Source of the DNA: a virus
Lineage: Duplodnaviria > Heunggongvirae > Uroviricota > Caudoviricetes
IMG/VR virus record: IMGVR_UViG_2802429223_000002
Reading direction: 5' to 3' (one strand)
DNA length: 43,156 bases
The translations under genes were made by a program, and so were the position numbers. This document shows, one piece after another, positions 25,727-40,005 of the stretch (within the stretch, counting starts at the first letter, position 1; each line of letters starts with the position of its first letter). A model generated the notes under the pieces. It ran no database searches, was not told the DNA's origin, and saw only the letters and a list, made by a program, of their open reading frames with translations.

Positions 25727-26220
25727 TACTCCTCCTGCTGTAATTCCTCCTCATCATCCGCACCTGCTTCAGTCACCCGCAGGGCTATCTGATCGCGCAG
25801 ATCATCAATAATGGACTGAACACGGCTCACAGCGGCAGGCTGCAGACCGCAGTCACGTTCAAGAATATCCGGTAATGTCTCCAGCACCTGCACGACCGCT
25901 TTTGCCCAGATGGCAAACTCCCGTCTGACATCACTGGCCGGAATGAGTTGTGCCGTTTCCTGTTCGAACTTAAGACGCTCACGTTCAGACTGATACCAGG
26001 CTTTGCGCTCATGCGCGTCCATTTCGCCTTCTGCAACCGGCGGTGGTAATGCCAGAAATGCCGACACAATATCAACCACCCGATAAAGCTTGAGGTTGCT
26101 TTCATGCCCCCCTGCAACGGGTAGATTTTGCAGCCTTGCCGCAGCAGTCTGGCGATGTACACCTGACAGTGCCGCCAGTTGACTGATATTAAGCGTCAGA
26201 TTTTTTAACTCTCGATCCAT
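25726..26220 (-). CDS. terminase small subunit (Nu1-like)
   Basis: 164 aa, N-terminal HTH-like region and acidic C-terminus; immediately upstream of and overlapping the large subunit start. Confidence 0.75.
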   Translation of the reverse strand: MDRELKNLTLNISQLAALSGVHRQTAAARLQNLPVAGGHESNLKLYRVVDIVSAFLALPPPVAEGEMDAHERKAWYQSERERLKFEQETAQLIPASDVRREFAIWAKAVVQVLETLPDILERDCGLQPAAVSRVQSIIDDLRDQIALRVTEAGADDEEELQQEE

Positions 26221-26384
26221 ACCCGCTCCAGAATGTTTTAAACATGCATCTTGCGAACAACTTTAGGCAAACGGTGTTAGTGATGAACAAAAAACAATCA
26301 AAATCGACACTACAAAAATAAAACCACTGTAATATCAATCTATTACAGTAGTGGTGATGACGAATGAAATTTCAAAAACTAGCC

Positions 26385-26415
26385 TTTTTCCGCGACGCTC
26401 CCGCCCCGTGAGAGC
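26385..26415 (-). other. putative cos site (cosN-like)
   Basis: Minus-strand reading GGGGCGGGAGCGTCGCGGAAAAAG resembles lambda cosN GGGCGGCGACCTCGCGGGTTTTCG; located about 180 nt upstream of the small terminase start, as in lambda. Confidence 0.4.
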
Positions 26416-26554
26416 TCAGGTCATCAGAAGGACCCACATTAAAGGCAGAATATTCACTCTGATATTACGCATTGTTTTGCTTTTGTAGATTCGCAATTTA
26501 CGGTAAAAATACTTTTGCTATTTCTTCGTACCATAAATGCACAGGAGTATCTTC

Positions 26555-26875
26555 ATGTCCATAAAGGTATTCAGAAGTGACCTTCAGACTGAGAGTGAAT
26601 CAGACTATCGTAATTGGCTTGGCGATAATCCAGACGGATATGTTGTCAATGCATTGAAGCGAACCAGAGGTAAAGGTAATAAATCTGACGAACGCTTTAC
26701 CAGAATCCATAGAGCATCTTGCAAAACGATTAATCCCTTGAAACGCAAGATCGATAAAACAGGATTCACAACTGGAGATTATCAAAAAATATGCTCAACC
26801 AACTTCCTCAATGTTGAAAATGAAGCAAAGAAAATGACAGGTCTGACAAGCATCATCAAATGTCGATGCATCTAA
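26555..26875 (+). CDS. hypothetical protein (AT-rich moron candidate)
   Basis: 106 aa from ATG 26555 with AGGAG SD; opposite strand to the late genes; no family recognised. Confidence 0.5.
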   Translation: MSIKVFRSDLQTESESDYRNWLGDNPDGYVVNALKRTRGKGNKSDERFTRIHRASCKTINPLKRKIDKTGFTTGDYQKICSTNFLNVENEAKKMTGLTSIIKCRCI

Positions 26876-27092
26876 AGCGTCATGTAATTAACATGTTCAC
26901 AACACTCTCCGGGTGACCGCTAATGCTGTTGTCAGCCAAAAACTCTACGTTTCGATTATGCCAATTTTGCACCGCCCGATGCCGATAAATGCGAAAATCC
27001 GGCGACTATGTAGCGTAATCAAATCAACGAGATACCACTTTCATGAAATAATTATCATCTGTCAGTTCAATATCAATGTTGAGAGAGAATAA

Positions 27093-27245
27093 ATGAGAGG
27101 AATGCCAAGAGGAAGTCGAGGACAGAGGGCTGTCCAATCAACTGCAAGAAGAGCAAGACGATCAAATGCCAGCCATTCTGACCAATTAGGATGCCTGGCA
27201 CTAATCATCGTTGGCCTGATATTTATCTATTTCATGGCTAATTAG
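27093..27245 (+). CDS. possible small membrane protein (50 aa, Arg-rich N-terminus, C-terminal TM helix)
   Basis: MRGMPRGSRGQRAVQSTARRARRSNASHSDQLGCLALIIVGLIFIYFMAN; many rare AGA/AGG/CGA codons; below ORF-track size cutoff. Confidence 0.25.
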   Translation: MRGMPRGSRGQRAVQSTARRARRSNASHSDQLGCLALIIVGLIFIYFMAN

Positions 27246-27255
27246 CAAAGATTGC

Positions 27256-27699
27256 TCATCTTACACACTGCGTGCGAATGTATTGCTGCAAGCCTCGGAT
27301 CATTTTATCACTGGTTTCAATCCGCTTTCTAAGGGTGAAATAATCCCGTTGAGCGGTGTCAGTAAGTCTGGGGCTGGTGCCATCATCCACGCCGGAGGCG
27401 GCGGTGATTTTATGCATGTCTGGACAGACAGCTTTGACGCGCAGCCACTTACGCCCAGCAGAAACATCAGCACGAAGACTTTCGATAGTCGCGTTAGCAT
27501 CAGCAAGCTCCTTTGTGTATCTGGCGTCGAGTTCTGCTACATCACGTTGACGCTTCTGCATATCAGCGATAGTGGATGCGGCTTTGTCGCGTTGCTCTTT
27601 GTAGGCGATGGCGTTATCACGGTAATGATTAACAGCCCATAACAGGCAGACGATGATGCAGATAATCAGAGCGGAGATAATCGCGGTTACTCTGCTCAT
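27256..27699 (-). CDS. Rz: i-spanin Rz
   Basis: [34 protein letters not shown]... matches lambda Rz as recalled; start ATG 27699 abuts endolysin stop. Confidence 0.9.
27300..27506 (-). CDS. Rz1: o-spanin Rz1 (lipoprotein, embedded in Rz in another frame)
   Basis: Lipobox LLGVSGC followed by the proline-rich [24 protein letters not shown], as in lambda Rz1. Confidence 0.8.
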
Positions 27700-28193
27700 T
27701 GCTGCCCCCACAAACAGACTTCACGCTCAATCTCACGACGAGTCATCAGTCCTTTCCATTGCTTACCTCCAGCGTATGTCCAGCGACGTAGCTGATCACA
27801 TGCGCCTTTGATATCGCCATGGTTTATTTTGCGAAGAAGCGTCGATGTTCTGAAATTGCCAGCACCCACGTTGTAGACGAACGAGTAAAGAGCGCCGCGC
27901 GTTGTTTCCGGTATATCGACTTTGATGTACGGGTTAATTTGTCTGGCGACCGTGGCAAGGTCTTTATTCAGGAGGGCTTTGCATTCTGCTTCGGTATACG
28001 TTTTACCGAGCATGATGTCTTTTCCGGTGTGTCCGTGGCATACAGTCCATACACCAACAATATCTTTGTATGGTATGTAGCTGACACCTTCCAGACCATC
28101 GTTACCACTTGGGCCAGTGATTAACACTGATGCTATAGCAATTGCTCCGCCACCAATAGCAGCAGCAACTGCTTTTCGTAATGATGGAGGCAT
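27696..28193 (-). CDS. R: SAR endolysin (phage 21 R-type lysozyme)
   Basis: N-terminal signal-anchor-release segment [20 protein letters not shown] followed by lysozyme domain; matches phage 21 R as recalled. Confidence 0.9.
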
Positions 28194-28408
28194 TATTCAC
28201 CTCTCGCAGCCTTGCGCTTATCTTCTTTAATCTTGAAATAAAGGTTTGTCAGATACGTCAGCAAGCCAAATACCAGACTACCCAGCACACCTATTGCCGC
28301 CCACTGTGAGGGCGTGACTTTATCGAGCAACTGTAAAAACCAGTACCCGGCACTACCTGCTGAGGTGCCATAGGCGACACCCGTTGTTAACTTATCCATG
28401 GATTTCAT
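28193..28408 (-). CDS. S: pinholin S (phage 21 S-type) with dual-start motif
   Basis: [71 protein letters not shown]; two in-frame Met (M1, M4); GAGGTGGAG SD. Confidence 0.9.
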
Positions 28409-28446
28409 AACTCCACCTCGCAGATGCGGGTGCAAATTGAGAGAAT

Positions 28447-28478
28447 AAAAAATCCCCGACAATTCCAGATGTCAGCGG
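28447..28478 (-). terminator. possible tR'-like hairpin and U-tract just upstream of S
   Basis: Minus-strand CTGACA...TGTCGG imperfect stem followed by GGATTTTTTATT. Confidence 0.3.
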
Positions 28479-28675
28479 CCTTAAATATAAAAACAGGCAA
28501 ATGCCGAGGTCCGCTAATCGTTGCCACTATGAGCGCTGCGACGCCATTTCATCCAGCCAAGCTATCAGATACGGAAGCCGTGCTGCCGCTTTTACGGCAT
28601 TGTATTCACTATACTTATCTATTCTGATATCGTTAAATCAACAGAAATAACCAATATCAGAAGGAACGCATTAAT

Positions 28676-29224
28676 ATGGCGAACAATCTTTTTTATACAC
28701 TTGACAGGCAGCGCACACTGAAGTCAGGCATGAAAATTGAATTAGCAGAACCGTACTGCCCAATCGTTCCACTTCAGGCTCATACGAGCTCATTGTTTTC
28801 CGACGGTGTATCCCGGCATGCAAATAATCTTTTTTTCAACTACCACATAAACCTCGTCAGCTCAGACGAACGATTTGGAGCAATAATAGAAATACTACTG
28901 GAAGAACGAAGGAAATCACACTTCCCTGAAAAACCATCGCGCTTCCAATCAATTTTTGCATGTGAGTCTGTAAAAGAAACCGCCTGGTTCAGAGGCTTTT
29001 CAAAATCCCCACTTGACACCCCAATATTTCAAGTCAGCTCATCGTCGAACTATCATAGAGGTGATATGAATTTGTTAAATCTGAACTGCTCCCCAGTAGA
29101 AGTATCTCAGAGGCTGGATCTTTACTGGAAGGGTGAAACAACACAGATTTACGAAGGGTATCAACCATTCTGGGAAGTGCTCATTCCATTGCCAGTTATT
29201 ATTGGTGAAAGAATTATCGAATAA
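28676..29224 (+). CDS. hypothetical protein (Q-S island gene 1)
   Basis: 182 aa, AGGAA SD before ATG; AT-rich; antisense to the late transcript; no family recognised. Confidence 0.55.
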   Translation: MANNLFYTLDRQRTLKSGMKIELAEPYCPIVPLQAHTSSLFSDGVSRHANNLFFNYHINLVSSDERFGAIIEILLEERRKSHFPEKPSRFQSIFACESVKETAWFRGFSKSPLDTPIFQVSSSSNYHRGDMNLLNLNCSPVEVSQRLDLYWKGETTQIYEGYQPFWEVLIPLPVIIGERIIE

Positions 29225-29519
29225 TGGCTCTGACACCAGAATCATTTCCATAGCCGAACTGACGCTGACAGATTTTTAATTCGCTTATGGCTTTCTCCAT
29301 TGCTAATAGCGCGTCTTCAGTACGGTAGCAATCAACCTCAAGAACAAACGTTTTGAGATTGCTACTATCATTCCCGGCGAAAAGCGCATAGCTGGGTTGA
29401 CCAGTCTGATTCATCCCCCCCCCCTCAAACGACGAAACCCGCTCGACGGCGGGTTTAAGCCACGTGACAAAGTAACCACTCTTAACACGATACAATAGTT
29501 TTTGCGTACGCGTTAGCAT
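29214..29519 (-). CDS. hypothetical protein containing a G10 homopolymer tract (Q-S island gene 2)
   Basis: 101 aa ORF; the run of 10 C on the plus strand (29415-29424) encodes E-G-G-G; reading frame depends on tract length. Confidence 0.4.
   Translation of the reverse strand: MLTRTQKLLYRVKSGYFVTWLKPAVERVSSFEGGGMNQTGQPSYALFAGNDSSNLKTFVLEVDCYRTEDALLAMEKAISELKICQRQFGYGNDSGVRAIIR
29415..29424. repeat. C10/G10 homopolymer tract
   Basis: Ten consecutive C at 29415-29424 inside ORF 29214-29519. Confidence 0.95.
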
Positions 29520-29567
29520 TTTTGTTAAAGTATAAAAATGTAATTAAACCAGTATGTCATCACTACA

Positions 29568-30452
29568 ATGAAATGCATCCGAAAACATCCAGCAATAGCT
29601 TATACAGTAATTATTTTAGTTTTTGCCTTAATATACAATTTCACTTGGAGCGTCAATCCAGATTCTTTCATTAAAAACAACGTTCTCAACTCTACACCTG
29701 TATATGATGCCGTTAATTTAGCATATGCGAACAATGAGGTAAAAAAAGAAGCTCCTGTCAGTGTTTCGAGGGAAGTATTTGCAGAGCAAATTTTAACACT
29801 TACAAATCAATTCAATAAGATAATAATTGAAAACTTAGAACTTGAAAAAACATTATCTCAGCAGCAAGAAAAATTAAAACAAATTAGTGAAAGACAATCA
29901 ATAAAGTGGGGCGAAAACACCAAAAAATACATAGCAGACAGTTTGAAAGATTTACACAAAACGCTTATCACTAAAAATAGTGAACGTACTGCCATAGCAT
30001 CTTTAAAAAACAAAACAAATGAAAGTCAGATTAACATTATGCTGGCCGACAAAGATGAAGAAATAGCCAAAATAAACCTTGAAATAGCGTATAAAGAGAA
30101 TGATGCTAATGTCTATATCTTATCTCATGTCGGCGACTTTAACGATCCAATAATCGTTAATGAGCTTGACGCAATCAATAAAGAAATTGAGAAAACAAGA
30201 ACAAAAATAATAAACAATAAAAAGAAAATAATGGAGATAAGGAGTAAATCTCAATCTATGCTGGAGAAACTCAAAAAAGATGACCTTAACTTTTGGGATT
30301 TCTTATTTTATAGCATAGGAATATCTACAACGACCACCTTTGGTGATTTGTTAGCAAATTCAAGACTTATCAGACTGATAGTTTGCGTGCAACTTTTACT
30401 ATCAATTATAGTTTTAGCTAACGTAACTCAAAGATTTTTATCAAAAAAATAA
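29568..30452 (+). CDS. membrane protein: N-terminal TM helix, long coiled-coil, C-terminal pore-loop-like motif (Q-S island gene 3)
   Basis: 294 aa; TM segment AIAYTVIILVFALIYNFTW; Lys/Glu-rich heptad region; C-terminus FLFYSIGISTTTTFGDL then hydrophobic helix RLIVCVQLLLSIIVLANV; very AT-rich. Confidence 0.55.
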   Translation: MKCIRKHPAIAYTVIILVFALIYNFTWSVNPDSFIKNNVLNSTPVYDAVNLAYANNEVKKEAPVSVSREVFAEQILTLTNQFNKIIIENLELEKTLSQQQEKLKQISERQSIKWGENTKKYIADSLKDLHKTLITKNSERTAIASLKNKTNESQINIMLADKDEEIAKINLEIAYKENDANVYILSHVGDFNDPIIVNELDAINKEIEKTRTKIINNKKKIMEIRSKSQSMLEKLKKDDLNFWDFLFYSIGISTTTTFGDLLANSRLIRLIVCVQLLLSIIVLANVTQRFLSKK

Positions 30453-30460
30453 AAAACAAA

Positions 30461-30478
30461 GCCCTCAAAAATGAGGGC
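30461..30478. terminator. bidirectional terminator between island gene 3 and Q
   Basis: GCCCTCA / TGAGGGC 7-bp stem with AAAA loop, flanked by an A-run upstream and TAATTT downstream. Confidence 0.6.
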
Positions 30479-30489
30479 TAATTTAAACC

Positions 30490-30834
30490 TTAAGATAAGA
30501 ACGATAAAATCCCGTCCAAAAATCCTAGTGCAGTTTGCAATTCCTTTCTAATCGTGCCATCTGAACACCTTCTCTTCTTGGCAATAGTGCGTAATGAGAT
30601 ACCAATAACAAAGTGGGCAATTAGTAGCTCATATTCTTCTGGCTTATATTTACGCAACCTCGCCACACATCCATCAATCATAAGACCTTCATCATCATCA
30701 CACTGCATCCGGGACTTTTTGCCATGAGGTAAAAGCCCCTTGAAGCCTGCTGCTATCGGCTGCCAATCCACACTACTGTTATCTGCTGCAGCCCATGCTC
30801 CCCAGCGGTCCAAAACTTCATACATGTCACGCAT
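30490..30834 (-). CDS. late-gene antiterminator Q (QuuD / phage 82-type family)
   Basis: [35 protein letters not shown]...[20 protein letters not shown] resembles E. coli QuuD as recalled ([35 protein letters not shown]...); lies upstream of the lysis cassette. Confidence 0.85.
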   Translation of the reverse strand: [114 protein letters not shown]

Positions 30835-30851
30835 CAACTTTCTCCACAAAA

Positions 30852-31847
30852 TCAGGCCAGCACGCCAATTGCCAGCGCACGATCGATAAAACGAAATATC
30901 AACTCCAGCTGGGAGCCATACTTCTCTTCAAATGCCACGGTATCCGCATGCAGCTCGTCGTGATGCTTTCTGCACAAAGGCAACACAAAGAGGTCATGTG
31001 CTTTTGTACCCATTCCACCCTGACCGTGGCCTATCAGGTGGTGGGGATCATCAGCAGGCTTTCCACAACATGCACACGGCTGAGTCTTAACCCAGCGCGT
31101 GTACTTTTCATTAACCCAACGGCGACGTTTGGGGCGTAACATAAAAGACTCCGGCGACTCCGGATCCACTTCCAGCGACAGCACATTTTTCGCTTTATCC
31201 TGGATGATGCTGGTGGCAGGAACCGAAGGAACAAGGTCACTTTCCCGGGTGACAGACGGCACAACAGGCTTCGGTAATCTCAGTGCCTTACGGGCTGCAC
31301 TTTCCGGTAAGGCATCCGCCAGATCATTACGAATCAGCCACCAGCACAGTTCCGGCATTGTCACAACGTGACTATCATCAAAACCGAGAGCCCGACGCAC
31401 AACAGACAACACCCAGCGGGCACAGTTATCCGTTGCCATTGATTCCAGCCGTTCCGTGAACTGATCGCGCAGTTGGTTATCGCAGTGCCAGCACAGACGG
31501 ATTGCGCCAGGCGCGTGTCGCATTGTGGTCATGTTCTCGCTGTGCCAGTTGGAATGAGGCCACTGGCAGCCTTTTTCACGAAGTAACCAGCTTTCAAGAC
31601 ATTCCACGCCACCAGCACGACGGATCACTGCCTCATTGCGGAACACGGCCCGAACGGCAGGATCATCCGCAAGCGGTTGTGACGCCGCGGGAACGGCACC
31701 ACTGGCGAAAGATGAATAATGCTCCGGCTCAGGCTCCAGCAGGACACGCCCCTGCATAAACAGGGGCATCAGCTCTGAACCGGGCCTGAACAATACGATC
31801 CCCATACGCGGGGCAATTTCAGGGGTCAGTAGTGCTCTCACGGTCAC
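30852..31847 (-). CDS. DUF968-like phage protein with C-terminal HNH-like zinc-ribbon motif
   Basis: 331 aa; C-terminal CACCGKPADDPHHLIGHGQGGMGTKAHDLFVLPLCRKHHDELH; position between nin-region genes and Q. Confidence 0.55.
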   Translation of the reverse strand: MTVRALLTPEIAPRMGIVLFRPGSELMPLFMQGRVLLEPEPEHYSSFASGAVPAASQPLADDPAVRAVFRNEAVIRRAGGVECLESWLLREKGCQWPHSNWHSENMTTMRHAPGAIRLCWHCDNQLRDQFTERLESMATDNCARWVLSVVRRALGFDDSHVVTMPELCWWLIRNDLADALPESAARKALRLPKPVVPSVTRESDLVPSVPATSIIQDKAKNVLSLEVDPESPESFMLRPKRRRWVNEKYTRWVKTQPCACCGKPADDPHHLIGHGQGGMGTKAHDLFVLPLCRKHHDELHADTVAFEEKYGSQLELIFRFIDRALAIGVLA

Positions 31848-31848
31848 C

Positions 31849-32658
31849 TCAATGAACGGTATCGAGCAGCTTTAACAGCTCAGGGAATCGGGATTCGAAG
31901 AAATGCGGCTGCGTCTCGCGCGGATTTGCGGGAGTGGTGATGTTTTTGCCGAACATGCAGCCTTTCGCCGTCAGCGACCAGAATTTTTTAATGTTGTTAA
32001 TTGCGGTACGGCTGTATCGTTCGCGTTGTTCAACGATCCCCAGCTTCACCATCTGGTGATATGCCTGATTAGCCGTCAGGCGGATACCATACTGCTTCAG
32101 CAGTGCACTCAGCGACAGCGTGGGACGACTTGAGCCATCGTGTGCATCAGCAGGAGCATCAATGGCATAGCGCGGTGCCAGATTCGGTAAGCCAACAGCC
32201 TCCTGGAGTTTCTGACAGGCCCCAAGCACAGATGAGTTAGACAGGTTTAACTCCCGACGCATAAAGTCCAGCAGAATCACACCAGCCTGCATCTTGTCAG
32301 CAGCCTGTCCGGATAATTTTTCCGGTGCGCTGGTTACCATATCGAAAGTACGGATCACCTTCAGATGGAATGACGGGCTGATCCACATTGCATAGGCATA
32401 CACCAGTTCCTTGCAGACATACGTTCCCCGTTCATTTCCCCCATGAATCACACTCACCGGGTCAACACCCAAATTCTGGGTGTTGGTCAATTCATGAACA
32501 AGCTCAACAGTTTGTTGGCTGGAAAGAAACTTTCCTGGCTCCTTGGTTCTGGCATTTGCACCAGATGCTACTGCTGCGCGATGCAGATCGTTCAGGCTGT
32601 AACGCCCATAAGCATCACGACGAACTTCAATACCATCAATGACCATCAGATTATTCAT
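31849..32658 (-). CDS. KilA-N domain protein
   Basis: N-terminal MVIDGIEVRRDAYGRYSLNDLHRAAV ... fits KilA-N; ATG 32658 preceded by AAGAGGAG SD. Confidence 0.7.
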   Translation of the reverse strand: MNNLMVIDGIEVRRDAYGRYSLNDLHRAAVASGANARTKEPGKFLSSQQTVELVHELTNTQNLGVDPVSVIHGGNERGTYVCKELVYAYAMWISPSFHLKVIRTFDMVTSAPEKLSGQAADKMQAGVILLDFMRRELNLSNSSVLGACQKLQEAVGLPNLAPRYAIDAPADAHDGSSRPTLSLSALLKQYGIRLTANQAYHQMVKLGIVEQRERYSRTAINNIKKFWSLTAKGCMFGKNITTPANPRETQPHFFESRFPELLKLLDTVH

Positions 32659-32677
32659 ACTTCGTTTCTCCTCTTGA

Positions 32678-33067
32678 TCAGGCGGCTGCACCCGCCGTTT
32701 TCTCGTACTTACTGATAGTGATCTCGACCTTCCCTTCCGGGATAACCGGTCCCCACTCCACCAGCATTCTTTTCACCTGACTGTCGTCTTCCCACACCCC
32801 CGCGTGGGTCAGGGCGTCAAACAGCGCCTTGTTATAGTTGTCCAGATCGCGGATCCGGTTATCCGGAGGAAACAACACGATCTCCACTGAAGCAGGTGCC
32901 GACGTTGGTTTTGGCAGACGACGTAACTGTTCAACTATTGCTGCGCACGCCGCGCTCTGAAATTTTCGTCCCGCCGCGCTTATCAGGCTCTTACCTGCAA
33001 ACGCCCCTTTGTTGGGGTGTCGCCAGTACGTGTTCACGCTGGGCGGAAAAGGCAGGATCAGCTTCAT
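32678..33067 (-). CDS. rusA: RusA-family Holliday junction resolvase
   Basis: 129 aa; PPSVNTYWRH...RDLDNYNKALFDALTHAGVWEDDSQV resembles E. coli RusA motifs. Confidence 0.85.
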   Translation of the reverse strand: MKLILPFPPSVNTYWRHPNKGAFAGKSLISAAGRKFQSAACAAIVEQLRRLPKPTSAPASVEIVLFPPDNRIRDLDNYNKALFDALTHAGVWEDDSQVKRMLVEWGPVIPEGKVEITISKYEKTAGAAA

Positions 33068-33390
33068 ACTTTCAGGCCCCTCTCATGTAACCAGTGGGTT
33101 GCACGCAGCCTTGCGTTTTCCTCACCGGCAAGCAGTGCGCGGATAATCCCGACCGCCTCGCTGTCGTCGTCCTTCACCGCGGTATGAAGCGTTATCCCCC
33201 GGGCCACGCCACGCTTTATCGTGATGACGCCTTTTTTCTCCAGTGCGCGAAGATGCTCTACCGCTGCATTCACTGAACGGTATCCCAGCATGGTTGCCAC
33301 CTCCTGATTGGTTGGCGGAAAGCCACGCTCTTTCTGGTAAGAAATCAGCATATCCAGCACCTGCTGCTGGCATTGAGTTAACGTCGTCAT
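33064..33390 (-). CDS. small winged-helix DNA-binding protein (LexA N-terminal-domain-like), no peptidase domain
   Basis: QQQVLDMLISYQKERGFPPTNQEVATMLGYRSVNAAVEHLRALEKKGVI resembles the LexA DNA-binding domain; TAATG overlap with upstream gene. Confidence 0.5.
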   Translation of the reverse strand: MTTLTQCQQQVLDMLISYQKERGFPPTNQEVATMLGYRSVNAAVEHLRALEKKGVITIKRGVARGITLHTAVKDDDSEAVGIIRALLAGEENARLRATHWLHERGLKV

Positions 33391-33884
33391 TACGCCCCCA
33401 CGTAATTCCCTGACAGATACCACTCATCACTCGATACAGCGCGCTTGCTGCTTTTCCGTAAACACTGCTCACGACGCGCCAGAAAATTGTTTCGTTCTGG
33501 CTGGGAGTGGCTTTCACGGAATGCCGCCATCCACACGGTTGCAGCACGACGGTATAAGCCCCTGGACTCCAGTTCTTCAGCCTGGCGGGTCAGGCACAAA
33601 ATCACCCGTGGATCGTTAGTGCCGACATAGAAATTGCGCACAGGTCTGGTTTCACGAACTGGTTGTGGTTCCGACTCCTGCGCTCTCTCAGTCAGGCGCG
33701 GGAAATGTCTGCGTGTATCTCCTTCACAACGGTGAGCCACACGCCCACTCTGACGTAACTTGCTTGCTGACTGCAGAACGCGCTGCCGTGAGTAACCTGC
33801 AAAAGCATCCGCAATGTCTCCGGAAGTACACCCCGGATGGGCTTCAATGAATTTCTGAACGTCATTCAAAAGACTCATGATCAC
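33390..33884 (-). CDS. hypothetical phage protein, possible PerC/ANR-like regulator motif in C-terminal half
   Basis: 164 aa; EELESRGLYRRAATVWMAAF resembles the PerC-family core as I recall it; low certainty. Confidence 0.35.
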   Translation of the reverse strand: MIMSLLNDVQKFIEAHPGCTSGDIADAFAGYSRQRVLQSASKLRQSGRVAHRCEGDTRRHFPRLTERAQESEPQPVRETRPVRNFYVGTNDPRVILCLTRQAEELESRGLYRRAATVWMAAFRESHSQPERNNFLARREQCLRKSSKRAVSSDEWYLSGNYVGA

Positions 33885-34822
33885 CCCCTGAATCCTGCCG
33901 GGATCTGGCTGTAGTCCACGTTGTCGTAACTGGATTTGAAGTACGGGTCTTCGCGTTTTTCGGTGTACGTGCTGACGGACGGCGATAAGCGCAGGGAAAG
34001 CTCATCCCATTTTTCCCGCAACTTCGACGGGCTGAGCACGTTACGGCACCAGAACGGATCGCGGCTGACGCGGCTGTACATCTCGCAGATTTGTTTGTGA
34101 GTACGACCATCCTGCACACACATCAGGCGAATTTCGTTTGCCCAGGCTGTCCAGTTCGGTTCTTTGGGACGAACCACCTCGCCGTCACATTCGGCAGCCT
34201 GCTCGTACAGGGCGATGATTTTTTTCCAGAGCCACTGTGCGCAGGTCAAATCATCCTGCGTTCCCCACTGGCGCTTTTTAGGGCTGAATACAACCGCATC
34301 AGGATGGCGAGTTAAAAAATCCTGTTCATCCGTCTGCGTGTCCGGTTGCGAAGCGTCCGGACGAGAAGGTTTTTTATCTGACGGATCATGTTTTGATTTT
34401 ACTGACGGATCCCCGCCAGATTCTGACGGGTGAAAACCCGCTTTTTTGCCAGATTTCGACGCATCAAATTTTGACGGGTCAGATTTTGATGCGTCAGATT
34501 TTGACGGGTCAGAATCTGACAGTTGAGAAAATGCCGCTGCCTGAAGCTTCGCAACGTTAAGCTGATAAACATTCGACGCATTGCGGTTACCCTGGCGACG
34601 CGCCTTACGCGTTAACCAGCCTTCTGCTTCCAGCCGTGCGATAGCCGTTCTGACGGTACTCATCCCCGCGCCAATCTGACGGGCAATGGTTTCAATTGAT
34701 GGCCAGCACACACCTTCGTCATTACTGAAATCAGCCAGGCGGGCCATAATTGCCACGCTGGATAATTTCATGCCTGACGCAGCGCAACCATCCCATACAT
34801 AGCCGGTTAATTTAGTGCTCAT
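33881..34822 (-). CDS. replication initiator (lambda O-like) with origin iterons inside the coding region
   Basis: N-terminal winged-helix region; central low-complexity DPSKSDASKSDPSKFDASKS encoded by direct DNA repeats; location after cro/cII. Confidence 0.6.
   Translation of the reverse strand: MSTKLTGYVWDGCAASGMKLSSVAIMARLADFSNDEGVCWPSIETIARQIGAGMSTVRTAIARLEAEGWLTRKARRQGNRNASNVYQLNVAKLQAAAFSQLSDSDPSKSDASKSDPSKFDASKSGKKAGFHPSESGGDPSVKSKHDPSDKKPSRPDASQPDTQTDEQDFLTRHPDAVVFSPKKRQWGTQDDLTCAQWLWKKIIALYEQAAECDGEVVRPKEPNWTAWANEIRLMCVQDGRTHKQICEMYSRVSRDPFWCRNVLSPSKLREKWDELSLRLSPSVSTYTEKREDPYFKSSYDNVDYSQIPAGFRG
34390..34527. repeat. origin iterons (at least 5-6 copies of about 15-17 bp, consensus AGATTTTGACGGGTCAG)
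   Basis: Direct repeats gattttgacgggtcag / gattttgatgcgtcag / gattttgacgggtcag / gaatctgacag and upstream variants. Confidence 0.7.
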
Positions 34823-34831
34823 GACCGACCT

Positions 34832-35170
34832 CTATTTCCCTGAATTTACGACGAAACTGTTCGAGCGGGCTGAAGCACTCATGCTCATAGCCTTCACGGA
34901 GGTAGATAACCCGTTGTGTTTCCGGCTCCCAACGAATGACTCTGACGGGCACTCCGTAGTGATCTTTGAACCAGCGGTTAACTTGTCGCAAAGGACTGTC
35001 TCCTTCTGCCGGTTGAAATCACCCACAGCCCACTCTGCAAAGCTGTGGGTTACAATTTCCCTGTCACCTGGTACATTTACTGCATAGCAATACTCCACCT
35101 TCGCTTTTCCACCTGGTACAGGAAGTGCAATCAGTTGCGAGCGACGGTAGTGTGTTGTTAAACTGTTCAT
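34832..35170 (-). CDS. hypothetical protein
   Basis: 112 aa; ATG overlaps upstream gene stop (ATGA), GGAG SD; preferred over the antisense ORF 34815-35087. Confidence 0.45.
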
Positions 35171-35757
35171 GCGTTAGTTTCTCCACAACCAGAAGCAATC
35201 GACGCCACGACGCCCGGAGCTGCACACTCGCGGGCGTCATTACTTTCTGAAATGCAAAAAATTTTGTAGACAAGTGCTGCATGCTCCTGCAGTTTCGAAA
35301 TTGAGAGATACAGCTCGTCGTTAATTGCTGTCTTCTCATGCGGTTCCACCACACCGTCTTCGATTGCCGAACGAATCTGTTTGGAATAACTGCCAATCTG
35401 TTCAATGACTTCCAGCAGGCGCTGGTTAATATCGGCGTTATCCACATCCTCGACGTCAGGAAGAGACACAAAGACGCCATTTGCAGACTGCGCCACAGCG
35501 TCAGCAATGAAGTGAGTGCCACCAGCACGTTGTAAAATCATCGCCCATCCCAGCGGGAAAATTTGATCGCCATCGGCACGAAGGCGGTTAAATAATGCGT
35601 TCTCTGTTACATCCAGCCAGTCAGCTGCTTCAGCGTAACCCCCCGGCAACGCTGCGATAGTTTTTCTGACAGCTTTCACGTACCACTTAGGCTGTTTTTC
35701 TACTTTCCAGTGATGCTTACCCACGGCTATCTCCTTAAAACTGTGGTTACTTTTCAT
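35167..35757 (-). CDS. phage early regulatory protein, possibly CII-like (CP76-type)
   Basis: About 196 aa from ATG 35757; position directly downstream of the cro-like gene; family assignment uncertain. Confidence 0.35.
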
Positions 35758-35995
35758 CTGATGAATCTTTAATCTTTTGAAAAATATCTGGACGTAATTT
35801 TTCTTTTGATATGCCAGTGGTCTTTTCAATGAATATCGAGAGCTTTGCAGGGGGACGCTTTTCTCTGTTCAACCAGTTCCAGACATGTTGTTGCTTTACT
35901 AAATGACCGCTGCTGGCTGTGAGCTTCCGAGCCAATTCTGATTGACCACCAGCCAGAGCGATTGCCTCCGATAAGGCTAATTGCTCAGGTGTCAT
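35747..35995 (-). CDS. Cro-like HTH regulator
   Basis: 82 aa with HTH (SEAIALAGGQSELARKLTASSGHLVKQQHVWNW); divergent from cI across an operator-rich 135-bp spacer; AGGAG SD. Confidence 0.6.
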   Translation of the reverse strand: MTPEQLALSEAIALAGGQSELARKLTASSGHLVKQQHVWNWLNREKRPPAKLSIFIEKTTGISKEKLRPDIFQKIKDSSDEK

Positions 35996-36130
35996 AGCTT
36001 TCTCCTTTTTAGGTAGTTAAGTTGTTACAAGTTGCAAGAATACAACATTAACAACTTTTATCACAACTTTTAGGTGTTGGAAAGCTAAAACATAAAGTTG
36101 TAACCTCATCAAAAAAGAGAGGGATATGTT
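35996..36130. promoter_or_regulatory. OR-like operator/promoter region between cro-like and cI-like genes
   Basis: Repeated half-sites AAGTTGT (36019, 36030, 36104) and ACAACTT (36052, 36065); 9-bp palindrome TTGTTACAA at 36022-36030; tandem ACAACTTTTA at 36051 and 36064. Confidence 0.6.
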
Positions 36131-36817
36131 GTGAAAACACTGGCAGAACGATTAAAGATAGGTAGAGAGAAAGCTGGCATGAGCCAAGCTCAACTAGCTG
36201 AAAAAATTGGACTTTCACAACAATCTGTAGCCAAAATAGAGAATGGCGAAACTCTACAACCGCGCAAAATTAAAGAAATTGCAAAAGTTTTAGGTGTATC
36301 ACAAAAGTGGTTACAACTTGGTATTGAAGACAACGCATCCATACCTGATCTTGTTGTAAAAGAAGCAGAAAGCACCGCATTAGACCCCGATATTTTCGTA
36401 AACATTCCTGTTTTAGATGTCGAGTTATCGGCAGGTAACGGATGTCTGGCTGAAATAGTTGAATCAGCTATTGACTGGTTTCCGTTAAGAAGAGCAGATT
36501 TGAGAAAATCTGGCGTATGTGCATCTAATGCCAAGATCGTAAAAATATGGGGGAACAGTTTATTACCAGTTCTCAATAATGGAGATCTTGTTGCCGTTGA
36601 TATTTCTCAAACCGTTCCTATTCGTGATGGCGATCTTTATGCCGTACGAGATGGTGTATTGCTAAGGGTTAAAATACTTATCAACTTACCTGACGGTGGC
36701 TTGATTCTTAGAAGCTTCAACAAAGATGAGTACCCAGATGAAATACTCACCTTTGAAGATAGACGAGCCAGAATTCATGTTATAGGTAGGGTATTCTGGT
36801 CATCGCGAACTTGGTAA
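36131..36817 (+). CDS. CI-like prophage repressor (HTH_XRE N-terminus, S24 LexA-like peptidase C-terminus)
   Basis: GTG start with AGAGAGGG SD; HTH (MSQAQLAEKIGLSQQSVAKIENGE) and C-terminal S24-like autocleavage domain. Confidence 0.85.
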   Translation: MKTLAERLKIGREKAGMSQAQLAEKIGLSQQSVAKIENGETLQPRKIKEIAKVLGVSQKWLQLGIEDNASIPDLVVKEAESTALDPDIFVNIPVLDVELSAGNGCLAEIVESAIDWFPLRRADLRKSGVCASNAKIVKIWGNSLLPVLNNGDLVAVDISQTVPIRDGDLYAVRDGVLLRVKILINLPDGGLILRSFNKDEYPDEILTFEDRRARIHVIGRVFWSSRTW

Positions 36818-37690
36818 TGCATCGAAAAGCATTTCTTCAGAAATAATTTTAAGTTTTGCACCATTATCATCCCTATAAGATATAGCTTTTTCGATCTTCC
36901 TTCCGTGACTTGAGAATTTCCAATCACGGGAGGAAAGCGTCCCAATTACTAAAAAATCCAACTTTTGAGTAATTCCACTACTGATGTTCCCACCAGCATT
37001 TTTAATCAAATTTTCAACTACGGCTCTCTTTCCTGCAACAAAAGTGCCTGTAAGACAATAGGTTTTACCCTCTAACTCTATCGAAGCCCCTACATCAATA
37101 GGCAGCCTGGTCGCCAAACCATCCACCACCCCACTTTCCAAGTCACATCCTGTGAAGTCTACTAATGCCTTATGTAGAGTTAAACTCTCATCTTCAGTAA
37201 TAACCCCATCTTTAAGAATTTCCTTTACAAGTGCATAAAGTTTTTTTCCTGGGTAGTTGTTCTTCAAAGCTCCATTTTGCTCAAGCCACCAATTAAGATA
37301 TCTTATTTCTTCTTGAGTTAAGTTCCGATCAGCAATTAATCCTTTACATAGTCCATTAAGTAAATGGACATCTACATCCTTGGAGTAAAAATCAATTTCA
37401 GGGATATCAAGAATTTCCCTCTGTATTTGGAGAAGGCTATTTTTAAGGTCATCACGTTCTTCTGATGTGATTATTCCATCCGCAAGAATATCCGACACCC
37501 GTGCTGATAGACTTTTTATAACTCCATTATTGATAATCTGCTTTGCTTCAAGTACCCATGTATCTAAGTAAAGAACCTCCTCTTCACGGACAACTCCATC
37601 TGCAATGATTCCATCAATGATGCTAATCAAGTTAGCAAATAACTTGTCCCGGTTCTGTGTGTAATTAAAAGCGTAAAGCGCGTCTTCCAT
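36800..37690 (-). CDS. tandem-repeat protein with C-terminal BRCT-like domain (rex-slot cargo gene)
   Basis: 296 aa from ATG 37690 (AGGAGG SD); four ~40-aa repeats (IADGVVREEEVLYL / LADGIITSEERDDL / IADRNLTQEEIRYL / LKDGVITEDESLTL) then GKTYCLTGTFVAGKRAVVENLIKNAGGNISSGITQKLDFLVIG, which resembles NAD-ligase BRCT domains; AT-rich. Confidence 0.6.
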   Translation of the reverse strand: MEDALYAFNYTQNRDKLFANLISIIDGIIADGVVREEEVLYLDTWVLEAKQIINNGVIKSLSARVSDILADGIITSEERDDLKNSLLQIQREILDIPEIDFYSKDVDVHLLNGLCKGLIADRNLTQEEIRYLNWWLEQNGALKNNYPGKKLYALVKEILKDGVITEDESLTLHKALVDFTGCDLESGVVDGLATRLPIDVGASIELEGKTYCLTGTFVAGKRAVVENLIKNAGGNISSGITQKLDFLVIGTLSSRDWKFSSHGRKIEKAISYRDDNGAKLKIISEEMLFDALPSSR

Positions 37691-37744
37691 ACAACCTCCT
37701 TTTTTTGATAATCCTTGCACTCCTTGGCTACTCGTTCAAACCAC

Positions 37745-37800
37745 ATAAAGTTGTTGACAACATTCAAAACCACAACTAAATTACAACTTAAAGGTGTTAA
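37745..37800 (+). promoter_or_regulatory. OL/pL-like operator-promoter: -35 TTGACA inside 11-bp palindrome TGTTGACAACA, -10 TAAATT
   Basis: Palindrome 37752-37762; -35 37754-37759; 17-nt spacer; -10 37777-37782; operator half-sites AAGTTGT / ACAACTT shared with the OR region. Confidence 0.55.
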
Positions 37801-37898
37801 AACAACGAACAGGCAGGACGCCCACGAAGTAGCCGCCTAGGGCATATGAAGTCCAGGATGATTCGTTAGCAACAAAAAAGCGCCCTACAGGACGCTTA

Positions 37899-37910
37899 GC
37901 TCTTTAACAA
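37899..37910 (+). promoter_or_regulatory. boxA-like antitermination element (GCTCTTTAACAA)
   Basis: 12-nt match to the rrn-type boxA core, about 110 nt downstream of the pL-like promoter and 45 nt upstream of the first early-left gene. Confidence 0.45.
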
Positions 37911-37955
37911 TCTGGTCCCCATCAACAAGTAACTGATAACTTGAGGAGGTGTGAA

Positions 37956-38162
37956 ATGCACAAAACAGAACCAAAAATCGTCGCACCCGGATACACAAAT
38001 GAGGAAATTTACGAGTGGATGGCAAAGAAGCTGGCAGCTATAAACCAGCTTCGTGAAGTGCTGTCTTATCGACAGGAAACAATAGACTCCTTAAAAAAAC
38101 TGGATCAGGAAATCACGGTTTTATCACAGGATGTTACTTTAGATATTGTGCAGACAAATTAG
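37956..38162 (+). CDS. hypothetical small protein, first gene of early-left operon
   Basis: 68 aa from ATG 37956 with GAGGAGG SD 5 nt upstream; not Arg-rich, so not recognisably N-like. Confidence 0.5.
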   Translation: MHKTEPKIVAPGYTNEEIYEWMAKKLAAINQLREVLSYRQETIDSLKKLDQEITVLSQDVTLDIVQTN

Positions 38163-38568
38163 GATCCCATTCATTTTCGTCAAAATCATCAAAGTGATGA
38201 ATTTGTGATCTCCAGTCTCGATAATCTAAAAATTTCTGGGCGGTTACGCTTATTTTATCAAGCGTGAGTTCATCCTGAATTGAAAGAAGAAGTTCATCAA
38301 ATTTCATCTCATTAATCTGTTTTGGCATCCAGTGATGCTTCATCAGAATAAGGTGAACCAGAGCTTTTTTCCCATTCAACTGATTATAGGGAGTGCCGAA
38401 TTTCTTCCGGTGCTCATGTAAGACAAGGTCCAGAAGAGTAAGTAATGTTGCCCTTGATTCAACTTTGCTTATTTCGACTGATGACACTACCCCACTGATT
38501 TCAATGCCCCGATACTTTCCAACATTTTCACAGTGGGATTTGTACAGCGTATAGATATTACCGGACAT
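38134..38568 (-). CDS. hypothetical protein, antisense to the early-left operon (moron candidate)
   Basis: 144 aa, AAGGA SD before ATG 38568; AT-rich; own upstream region carries tandem direct repeats. Confidence 0.5.
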   Translation of the reverse strand: MSGNIYTLYKSHCENVGKYRGIEISGVVSSVEISKVESRATLLTLLDLVLHEHRKKFGTPYNQLNGKKALVHLILMKHHWMPKQINEMKFDELLLSIQDELTLDKISVTAQKFLDYRDWRSQIHHFDDFDENEWDPNLSAQYLK

Positions 38569-38584
38569 TTCTTTTCCTTTTGCG

Positions 38585-38635
38585 TTGTTGGGGATAACCA
38601 GATTAACCGAATCCTTGTTGTTGGGGAATAACCAG
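38585..38635. repeat. two direct repeats TTGTTGGGGA(A)TAACCAG, 33 bp apart
   Basis: Copies at 38585-38601 and 38618-38635, 20-70 nt upstream of the minus-strand gene start at 38568. Confidence 0.8.
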
Positions 38636-38854
38636 GTCCACCTCGCCTGATGTGGCTAAAAGCAGGCACATAACAGCTAAGTATTTTCAACCAGAGAGAA
38701 TTCTTAGCGTTGTGGTGAATGCGGCTCAGCGCACGCGGGTTAAGGTTGAGGCTGACAGTCGACCTTCTGTGGATACCCACCCGTCTGGTGTGCAACCTTC
38801 GCCAGGCACCGGGAGGCACCCGGCACCACAACTTTATGCTGTGTGTAGTCCTGG

Positions 38855-38899
38855 CGGTACCAGTTTGTACCCTTGCTTCCGGCTGGTACCGTCCTTTTT
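38855..38899 (+). terminator. terminator-like hairpin and T5 in early-left operon
   Basis: 9-bp stem CGGTACCAG / CTGGTACCG with 19-nt loop followed by TCCTTTTTA. Confidence 0.45.
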
Positions 38900-39020
38900 A
38901 CAAAACAGAGAAGAGCATCACCGGACGACGGGCTCATAACCCAATCCATCCGGGCGGCTACCACCGCAGGTGTTCTTCTCTGTTTTGTGGAGAAACTAAC
39001 CGCCCCTACGGGGGCATTTA
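38900..39020 (+). other. hairpin-dense non-coding stretch (15-bp perfect inverted repeat plus GC tetraloop hairpin); candidate structured RNA or regulatory site
   Basis: ACAAAACAGAGAAGA (38900-38914) pairs perfectly with TCTTCTCTGTTTTGT (38974-38988); GCCCC-TACG-GGGGC hairpin at 39002-39015; overlapping ORFs lack RBS. Confidence 0.4.
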
Positions 39021-39111
39021 TGGAAATGTAATTGACTCAATAATCGCCGGACGGTGAGGGCTTCCTTTTACCCGAATTCAGCGCGGTGCAGCGCATATAC
39101 GTGGAGAACAA

Positions 39112-39649
39112 AATGTCATTTATTAAAACTTTTTCCGGGAAGCATTTTTATTATGACAGGATAAATAAAGACGACATCGTTATTAACGATATCGCGGTTT
39201 CCCTTTCAAATATCTGTCGCTTTGCAGGACATCTTTCACACTTCTACAGTGTCGCCCAACATGCGGTGCTTTGCAGCCAGCTGGTGCCGCAGGAATTTGC
39301 TTTTGAAGCTTTAATGCATGATGCAACAGAAGCATATTGCCAGGACATCCCCGCACCACTGAAACGACTTCTTCCTGACTATAAACGGATGGAAGAAAAA
39401 ATAGACGCCGTAATCCGTGAGAAATACGGGTTACCTCCTGTTATGAGCACGCCAGTGAAATATGCCGATCTCATTATGCTGGCAACCGAACGCCGCGATC
39501 TCGGGCTTGATGATGGCTCTTTCTGGCCTGTACTGGAAGGTATCCCGGAAACAGAGATGTTCAAAGTGATTCCACAGGCACCGGGCCATGCCTACGGGAT
39601 GTTTATGGAACGTTTTAACGAGTTATCGGAGTTACGCAAATGCGCATGA
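39112..39649 (+). CDS. HD-domain phosphohydrolase
   Basis: H...HD metal-binding pattern (HLSHFYSVAQHAVLCSQLV ... ALMHDATEAY); ATG 39112 with GGAGA SD. Confidence 0.7.
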
Positions 39650-40005
39650 ATGTTTTCGAAATGGAAGGGTTTCTTCGTGGGAGATGTGTACCGCGAGATC
39701 TGAAAGTGAATGAAACAGATGCTGAATACCTGGTGCGTAAATTCGATGCGCTTGAAGCTAAATGTGCAGCACAGGAAAACAAAGTAATACCAGTGTCAAC
39801 TGAACTGCCACCAGCAAATGAAAGTGTTTTGTTATTCGATGCTAACGGAGAAGGCTGGCTAATTGGCTGGCGTTCTCTCTGGTACACCTGGGGACAAAAA
39901 GAAACCGGAGAATGGCAGTGGACATTTCAGGTCGGGGACCTTGAAAACGTCAATATCACTCACTGGGCAGTAATGCCAAAAGCACCGGAGGCTGGAGCAA
40001 AATGA
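39640..40005 (+). CDS. DUF551-like phage protein
   Basis: C-terminal Trp-rich segment (GWLIGWRSLWYTWGQKETGEWQW...ITHWAVMP) typical of DUF551 as recalled. Confidence 0.55.
   Translation: MRMNVFEMEGFLRGRCVPRDLKVNETDAEYLVRKFDALEAKCAAQENKVIPVSTELPPANESVLLFDANGEGWLIGWRSLWYTWGQKETGEWQWTFQVGDLENVNITHWAVMPKAPEAGAK

Follow-up and report, generated by a model that had tools for sequence, protein, structure and literature searches.

In this study, we examined a candidate replication origin in the 43,156-nt sequence IMGVR_UViG_2802429223_000002 (Caudoviricetes), a lambdoid prophage, the whole of which is referred to here as the window. The element lies at positions 34370-34520, within the part of a minus-strand initiator gene (33881..34822, 313 aa) that codes for a predicted disordered linker, and very probably represents the replication origin of this prophage. 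The original prediction had proposed that iterons are embedded in an O-like initiator gene, mirroring lambda ori inside O, and the layout of the region, its conservation at the DNA level, the pairing of the N-terminal domain of the initiator with the repeat type and the homology of the C-terminal domain to lambda O agree with this proposal, as far as can be judged from sequence comparisons. As an origin, the element would be a new member of the well-known lambda-style class, of which a loaderless design with a DnaT-like tail is the variant. It would provide a testable origin for a prophage replication module present in about half of the complete Escherichia coli genomes, the serotype-converting Shigella phages SfII and SfIV included, as well as a natural case of overlapping codes, in which a disordered linker is shaped by a DNA-binding-site constraint that can be seen at synonymous sites.

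Repeats, conserved box and AT-rich segment in the initiator gene

Six 12-nt units are located inside the minus-strand initiator gene, with TCAAAATCTGAC on the coding strand and then three variable bases. Units 1 to 5 form a tandem array with 15-bp spacing (34448..34519, minus strand; 34508-34519, 34493-34504, 34478-34489, 34463-34474 and 34448-34459), their coding sequences being TCAGATTCTGAC, TCAAAATCTGAC (twice), TCAAAATTTGAT and TCGAAATCTGGC, and unit 6 (TCAGAATCTGGC, 34415..34426, minus strand) lies 33 bp from unit 5 and starts a conserved box. The direct repeats of about 15-17 bp, at least five or six in number, that had been claimed for 34390-34527 are therefore present, and the peptide encoded by the tandem units, SDSDPSKSDASKSDPSKFDASKS, after which HPSESGGDPSVKSKHDPSDKK comes further along, is the DPSKSDASKSD linker that had been described. 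Tandem Repeats Finder reported the array at 34450-34513 with a period of 15 (4.3 copies, 81% matches), and the same array at a period of 30 (2.1 copies, 88% matches). When up to two mismatches to the 12-mer GTCAGATTTTGA were allowed, 8 of the 12 matches in the window fell within 34415-34520, that is within 106 bp of 43 kb; these eight correspond to six sites, two of which match on both strands, and the remaining four are scattered singles. For the whole window, 3.97 matches would be expected, and none of 100 shuffled sequences reached the observed 12; no second cluster of the unit motif is found in the 43-kb window. Unit 1 (TCAGATTCTGA) forms a perfect palindrome (5+1+5), the remaining units are symmetric at 8 of 11 positions, and the best unit site can be written as TCAGAnTCTGA. 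Rfam gave matches to mir-5880 at 34447-34521 on both strands, which are below threshold (30.7 bits against a gathering score of 97); these are an artefact of the palindromic repeats, and an RNA element was rejected.

Relatives were collected by a scan of one genome per species, which yielded 80 loci. The repeats are conserved in homologous initiator genes: 55 genes from more than 25 enterobacterial genera follow a common plan, in which 3-9 units spaced by 15 bp come first, then a variable spacer and then a box of approximately 65 bp. In the window this box occupies 34370..34435 (minus strand, coding TTTCACCCGTCAGAATCTGGCGGGGATCCGTCAGTAAAATCAAAACATGATCCGTCAGATAAAAAA), and most of its positions, those at the third base of codons among them, reach a column consensus of 90% or more; unit 6 shows approximately 90-100% nucleotide conservation among the 55 genes. 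The box holds two GATCCGTCAG motifs on the minus strand, 24 bp apart, at 34402..34411 (with the Dam site GATC at 34408-34411) and at 34378..34387 (GATC at 34384-34387), and CTGACGGATC is found twice in the window, at these same two places, compared with 0.18 expected. The lower copy is just beyond the start coordinate of 34390 given by the original prediction.

The same prediction had advised looking for an AT-rich DNA-unwinding element next to the iterons, and a modest candidate is present on the C-domain side of the array. It is the least stable 30-mer of the gene (34372..34401), with a nearest-neighbour free energy (dG) of -34.1 compared with means of -42.4 for the gene and -41.3 (standard deviation 3.7) for the window, and it overlaps the GATCCGTCAG motifs; the 40-bp stretch at 34360-34399 has a GC content of 0.35. 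In 8 of 10 representative relatives, which cover several repeat types, the gene's least stable 30-mer is likewise found at the end of the array or at most approximately 70 nt after it. With regard to the Dam sites, the two GATC sequences of the box are essentially invariant in the 55 genes, and GATC is also found in the AT-rich segments that belong to other repeat types (loci L013, L018 and L075). A methyltransferase gene of the Dam, MT-A70 or C5 type comes immediately after the initiator gene in many relatives; a dam gene is present at this place in SfII and absent in SfIV and in the window. Methylation control of the origin is possible.

The initiator protein is a chimera of an HTH_36 N-terminal domain and a lambda-O-type C-terminal domain. 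As a whole it matches phrog_391, 'replication initiation O-like' (E 1.2e-135), while the NCBI pipeline names its gene only as coding for a 'helix-turn-helix domain-containing protein'. The N-terminal winged-helix DNA-binding domain (aa 1-99, 34526..34822, minus strand) contains HTH_36 at aa 23-70 (E 4.3e-11) and is the presumed reader of the iterons, with which it is co-inherited in relatives. PF04492 (Phage_rep_O), which lambda O itself matches with an E value of 5.7e-36, is not matched by the initiator, where only HTH_36 and generic winged-helix families were found. The linker at aa 103-163 is predicted to be disordered (predicted local distance difference test score, pLDDT, below 40), and the repeats and the box (aa 102-151) lie entirely within it, where the protein would leave room for DNA signals. 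The C-terminal domain (aa ~172-278, 33989..34309, minus strand) is homologous to lambda O aa ~178-270 (BLASTP E 7e-26), keeps the motifs WGT.EDLT.A.W, WAN[DE]IRLM..DGR.H and FW..NVLSP.KLR.KW, and is helical at aa 189-278 (pLDDT 85-92). The description of the protein as 'O-like' is thus correct for its C-terminal domain but not for its N-terminal domain. In lambda, the C-terminal domain of O binds P.

The likeness to lambda ori is one of plan: in both cases, the iterons are located in the linker-coding middle of the initiator gene and the AT-rich segment comes next on the C-domain side. In lambda, the four annotated iterons span gene nt 349-433 and the least stable 30-mer nt 445-476; in the window, the units span gene nt 304-408 and the least stable 30-mer nt 422-451, which is the same order. 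However, besides the Phage_rep_O domain of lambda O, which is replaced by HTH_36 in the window, the two systems differ in their repeats, with 18-19-bp iterons at 20-24-bp spacing in lambda and 12-nt units at 15-bp spacing and in frame in the window; in the gene immediately downstream, which is P in lambda and a PerC-family gene in the window; and in the tail of the initiator, which is ...NTDWIYGVDL in lambda O and ...IPAGFRG in the window protein.

Other systems share parts of this design. The Stx phages have six iterons, and the Stx-phage O is paired with P. Gene 18 of P22, gene 18 of phage L and Stx-phage O each likewise have, per type, their own repeats in their own initiator coding region, the number of which varies. 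There are four repeats of approximately 20 bp in P22 and six 11-bp repeats in L, and P22 and L pair the initiator with the DnaB-type helicase gene 12 (PMC8022706). The window has neither the helicase partner of P22 and L nor the P partner of the Stx phages. In the iteron plasmids (pSC101, P1, F, R6K and RK2), a winged helix in the initiator, direct repeats and an AT-rich region beside them are combined with the use of the host helicase in the absence of a dedicated plasmid loader. The first three features recur in the window; the differences are that here the repeats lie inside the initiator open reading frame, have 15-bp spacing and are not accompanied by a cluster of DnaA boxes.

According to the mechanism that we propose, the N-terminal winged helix would bind the array of partly palindromic units, five at 15-bp spacing and a sixth. 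By analogy with the lambda O-some, the resulting nucleoprotein complex would then destabilize the adjoining AT-rich segment at approximately 34372-34401 with its GATC sites. In the third and least certain step, the host DnaB would be brought in without a phage loader; the lambda-O-type C-terminal domain is kept, and a DnaT-like peptide instead of P would dock to DnaB-DnaC or to PriA/PriB.

It could be argued that the conserved DNA acts in cis but not as an origin, being an autoregulatory or copy-control array, or a Dam/SeqA, promoter or antisense RNA site, and that the origin is elsewhere. Iteron arrays serve control functions in plasmids, the box has its two invariant GATC sites, and a terminator-like hairpin (CGGGTGAAAACCCG followed by a T-run, 34427-34440, plus strand), antisense to the initiator, is located between units 5 and 6. 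However, this hairpin falls within the variable spacer and is not kept in relatives, on which grounds it was rejected as a functional element; an internal promoter was likewise rejected, since there is no promoter-like site in 33800-35300, and no real Rfam match was obtained. The window lacks a second cluster of the motif, the position and order of the elements match those of lambda ori, and control and origin roles can coexist. We therefore regard a purely regulatory array as unlikely. An origin that depends on DnaA was also considered. A perfect DnaA box, TTATCCACA, is located at 35438-35446 (plus strand) inside cII, approximately 600 bp upstream of the initiator gene; however, TTWTNCACA occurs 3 times in the window compared with 4.2 expected, with none of the three in or beside the repeat region, so that with one perfect box only and a count at chance level this possibility was rejected.

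Constraint on the DNA and on the peptide

Another way to account for the array is that a slippage-prone, low-complexity (DxSKS)n linker has been selected as protein and that the DNA repeat is a by-product with no role in cis. All spacings of the repeat type found in the window are multiples of 3 (15, 33 and 24 bp), and so the window alone cannot tell peptide repeats from DNA repeats. The number of iterons is also polymorphic among close homologues, from 1-2 up to 9 units (9 in variant P0048), as slippage predicts, and the linker is predicted to be disordered. However, codon usage in the 55 genes argues that selection acts on more than the peptide. The Ser3 codon is TCA in 87% of cases in the units and in 18% elsewhere in the same genes, the Ser5 codon is TCT in 78% compared with 8%, the Lys codon is AAA in 100% compared with 61%, and the Asp codon is GAC in 80% compared with 49%; AGC, which is the commonest serine codon in the rest of these genes, is absent from Ser5. 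For conserved residues of the box, the mean number of different codons is 1.8 and the top-codon fraction 0.91, whereas in the N-terminal domain of the same genes these values are 3.6 and 0.54, and the pairwise codon identity to the window at positions with the same residue lies within 0.81-1.00 for the box and within 0.31-0.53 for the N-terminal domain. Across genera, synonymous sites are held in the units and in the box but are scrambled in the neighbouring domain, and the constraint therefore acts on the DNA. Furthermore, position 2 of the unit peptide is unconstrained (A/P/T/G/R/V), and substitutions in the units, such as S to F and K to E, are single-base and non-conservative. The initiator gene and the ori box are both under purifying selection.

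The same conclusion can be drawn from relatives that have other repeats. Type-B HTH_36 N-terminal domains (in Edwardsiella, Erwinia, Mixta and E. coli variant P0037) are accompanied by CCAAATATTGAC/TTAACGGTTGAC units at 15/30-bp spacing, which encode PPNID/GLTVD, so that the DNA plan is kept while the peptide differs. Relatives with a lambda-O-type C-terminal domain but other N-terminal domains have other repeats at the same place: five copies of CCGCAGAATCGCGGAAC at 22-bp spacing in L075, five copies of TCCATCGGGTCAAAATG at 23-24-bp spacing in L067, four copies of the L067 repeat spaced by 23, 46 and 24 bp in L076 and L079, and five copies of CCGCAAACAAGAATGCGG in L016, with one spacing of 62 bp followed by three of 23 bp. 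The repeats of these five loci have dyad symmetry and use all three reading frames, for which reason they cannot be peptide repeats. The repeat of L018 is the palindrome GTTCAGATTCTGAAC, and distinct N-terminal domains are paired with distinct repeats in type A, type B, L018, L016, L067 and L075. A linker maintained only as protein would have to accommodate this pairing together with the out-of-frame repeats, the 22-23-bp spacings and the near-fixed synonymous positions, and we consider it very unlikely.

The N-terminal domain and the repeats travel as one module, which is joined to a C-terminal domain of either the lambda-O type or the Phg_2220_C type; in P0037, for example, a type-B N-terminal domain with its repeats is joined to the window's C-terminal domain. 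In E. coli genomes, recombination breakpoints are found at gene nt ~235 and ~443, the latter just after the box. A CPS-53-type copy in K-12-type strains (H54-H58; L003 and L004) consists of gene nt 234-942 only, with the repeats, the box, the C-terminal domain and the tail kept. This copy, which lacks the winged helix, would be an origin without its reader.

Several observations weigh against the interpretation of 34370-34520 as an origin, in addition to the in-frame spacing discussed above. With a spacing of 15 bp, the units are not in phase with the helix, in contrast to the iterons of lambda at 20-24 bp, and the AT-rich segment is modest, belonging only to about the 5% least stable in the window. 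In variants P0015, P0018, P0034 (128 contigs, Salmonella), P0063 and P0069, in-frame deletions leave 1-2 units and the box, and from the natural variants P0015, P0018, P0034 and P0069 it follows that the tandem units may be dispensable or only modulatory. Lastly, the box is common to types with different tandem units and may therefore serve a general function, such as unwinding or Dam/SeqA control, rather than specificity.

A module without a loader and its DnaT-like tail

No helicase loader gene of the P or DnaC type had been evident downstream of the initiator gene, and the same applies to the window as a whole, in which no P, DnaC or DnaB gene is present: searches by tblastn with lambda P, the P-like protein of a relative and a DnaC-like protein gave no credible match, and the sole Walker A motif in the window is that of the terminase. 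The next gene, described before as coding for a 164-aa protein of unclear function, does have this length, but its product can be identified as a PerC-family protein (33390..33884, minus strand; Pfam PF06069, E 7.7e-10; phrog_1324; yfdN in the NCBI Prokaryotic Genome Annotation Pipeline, PGAP). Its start overlaps the stop codon of the initiator gene, the same position as is taken by the P gene in some relatives. The idea that it might be a P in disguise was rejected, as it has no similarity to lambda P, accompanies both types of C-terminal domain and is absent from most loci; a winged-helix/PerC-family gene with overlapping stop and start codons follows the initiator in 20 of the 80 loci. In some relatives, the initiator is followed by a genuine P homologue, 39% identical to lambda P (PF06992, E 3e-58).

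A 2025 study describes lambdoid modules with a single O homologue and neither helicase nor loader in phage LLS and 34 of 314 lambdoid phages, and states that replication of this O-only type is 'not yet understood' (PMC12315714). With respect to CI and Cro, LLS is most closely related to mEp460_4F5 (PMC12315714), and mEp460_4F5 matches the window region at 97% identity. The module of the window belongs to this O-only class. For the O-only modules of LLS and mEp460_4F5, neither iterons nor a DnaT-like tail are mentioned in the consulted passages of PMC12315714.

That the module is incomplete, its O-like protein and repeats being a relic, with a loader supplied by a co-resident prophage or with recombination-dependent restart, would be consistent with a window that lacks a loader gene, with a truncated K-12 CPS-53 copy and with 9 Chi sites where 2 are expected, 8 of them on one strand and with no obvious recombination module, like the RecBCD-aided phages described in PMC12315714, but this is highly improbable in view of the isolated phages SfIV and SfII, which carry the same module, an almost full-length gene in 1576 of 5426 complete E. 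coli genomes, the purifying selection on the gene and the ori box, and a C-terminal GFRG tail kept across two C-domain families.

This tail is the disordered C-terminal end of the initiator (33884..33940, minus strand), which ends ...VDYSQIPAGFRG and is shared with the host DnaT (primosomal protein i). The last residues, ...SQIPAGFRG, are the conserved C-terminal peptide of DnaT: the initiator terminates in ...NVDYSQIPAGFRG and E. coli DnaT in RDVNTVSEPDSQIPPGFRG (...NTVSEPDSQIPPGFRG), with 8 of 9 residues identical. Some relatives come closer to DnaT, with L067 ending in VNHISEPDTEIPPGFRG and L043 in KRERDINAISRPDTSIPPGFRG; some DnaT orthologues end in DINAISQPDSQIPPGFRG. The tail is conserved in the retrieved DnaT orthologues, all of which have 71% or more identity to E. 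coli DnaT. When the initiator and DnaT are compared with hhalign, the alignment is confined to the last ~19 residues, and the initiator has no Pfam match to PF17948, the three-helix-bundle domain of DnaT that binds single-stranded DNA. At the level of sequence, the two proteins have a short motif in common rather than a domain, and no homology extends beyond the tail. A weak patch of BLAST similarity (PNWTAWANEIRL against PDWQPDADFIRL) that might have related the C-terminal domain of lambda O to that of DnaT was rejected, as hhalign aligned nothing but the tail and no relative has a solved structure. The label 'primosomal protein (I)' in some phage records is probably due to the shared tail. 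The two proteins also differ in their proposed site of action, since DnaT acts at forks via PriA/PriB and not at a sequence-specific origin as proposed here for the initiator.

In the initiators compared, the tail is never combined with a lambda-P-like next gene. It takes the form GFR[GSTVC] in 52 of 81 initiators, on both kinds of C-terminal domain, and none of these 52 has a P-like or DnaC-like gene after it. All eight initiators with a P-like next gene have a lambda-like aromatic-acidic tail (...W..ENTL or ...WIDGIENDL), so that a P-like neighbour is found with 0 of 52 GFRG-type tails and with 8 of the other 29 (Fisher p = 1.3e-4, uncorrected for phylogeny). We tentatively suggest that O-only initiators dispense with a phage loader by means of a captured DnaT C-terminal peptide (...D[IV]N..S.PD..IP.GFRG), which would plug the origin complex into the host helicase-loading machinery, although we would lean somewhat against this idea at present. 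Two points in particular speak against it. A third tail class (...WN.IWK.C.QR...) is also found without a P-like neighbour, and in the literature we found no established binding target of the DnaT tail and no role for it beyond a contribution to cooperativity in binding single-stranded DNA, to which residues 154-179 of DnaT add (PMC4132743). Nothing was found in the literature on the tail motif.

If the suggestion is true, the same peptide would be the long-sought element that lets DnaT pass the preprimosome on to DnaB-DnaC or make contact with PriA/PriB, and the type of O tail would predict the partner, GFRG pointing to the host route and W..[ED][ND][TV]L to a loader of the P type. How DnaT recruits DnaB/DnaC 'remains unknown' (PMC13377028), and the findings bear on this question as well as on helicase loading by the O-only lambdoid phages (PMC12315714). 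Owing to the shared tail and its exclusion with P, both recruitment questions become simple deletion and pull-down experiments.

The third tail class is an extension of approximately 70 aa that ends ...WN.IWK.C.QR... or ...AW.GIWQQA.EQAA and occurs with neither P, DnaC nor a GFRG tail; it was found at loci L011, L014, L015, L017, L019-L021, L050, L056, L063, L064, L069, L072-L074, L080 and L081, and may be another route to the host helicase. At one further locus, L071, an IstB/DnaC-like ATPase follows the initiator, the tail of which (...IPEGFNQNL...) has the GFRG-like motif extended or disrupted.

Phage and gene neighbourhood

The window shares approximately 98% identity with SfIV and SfII of Shigella and with several phages of E. 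coli, and the prophage is of the SfIV/SfII/mEp460/CPS-53 lambdoid type. On the minus strand, a YdaS-type Cro-like gene is followed by CII (CP76), a 112-aa DUF4222/phrog_1170 gene, the initiator gene and the PerC-family (yfdN-like) 164-aa gene, after which come genes for a protein with a LexA DNA-binding domain, RusA, a KilA-N protein and a DUF968 protein. The 112-aa gene upstream of the initiator (34832..35170, minus strand; phrog_1170, and DUF4222 by PGAP) precedes the initiator in 27 of the 80 loci and is thus a frequent but not universal neighbour. Neither this gene nor the PerC-family gene is known to act in replication.

Chi sites (GCTGGTGG) in the window span 25576-39815; all but one of the nine are on the minus strand, and none of 100 shuffled sequences reached this number (2.0 expected). 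In the early-left region at 37.7-40.5 kb there is no obvious exo, bet, erf or recT gene, only small open reading frames. A Chi-rich window without an obvious Rec module resembles the 'no Rec module, Chi-rich' lambdoid class described in PMC12315714.

No origin is mentioned in the genome papers on SfIV (PMC3851460) or SfI; the repeats may nevertheless have been described before. SfIV is an isolated and characterized serotype-converting phage (PMC3851460), and its initiator gene differs from that of the window at 8 of 942 nt, none of which lie in nt 290-453; because of this near identity, the module belongs to a characterized phage. A match to the initiator module is found in 2724 of the 5426 complete E. 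coli genomes.

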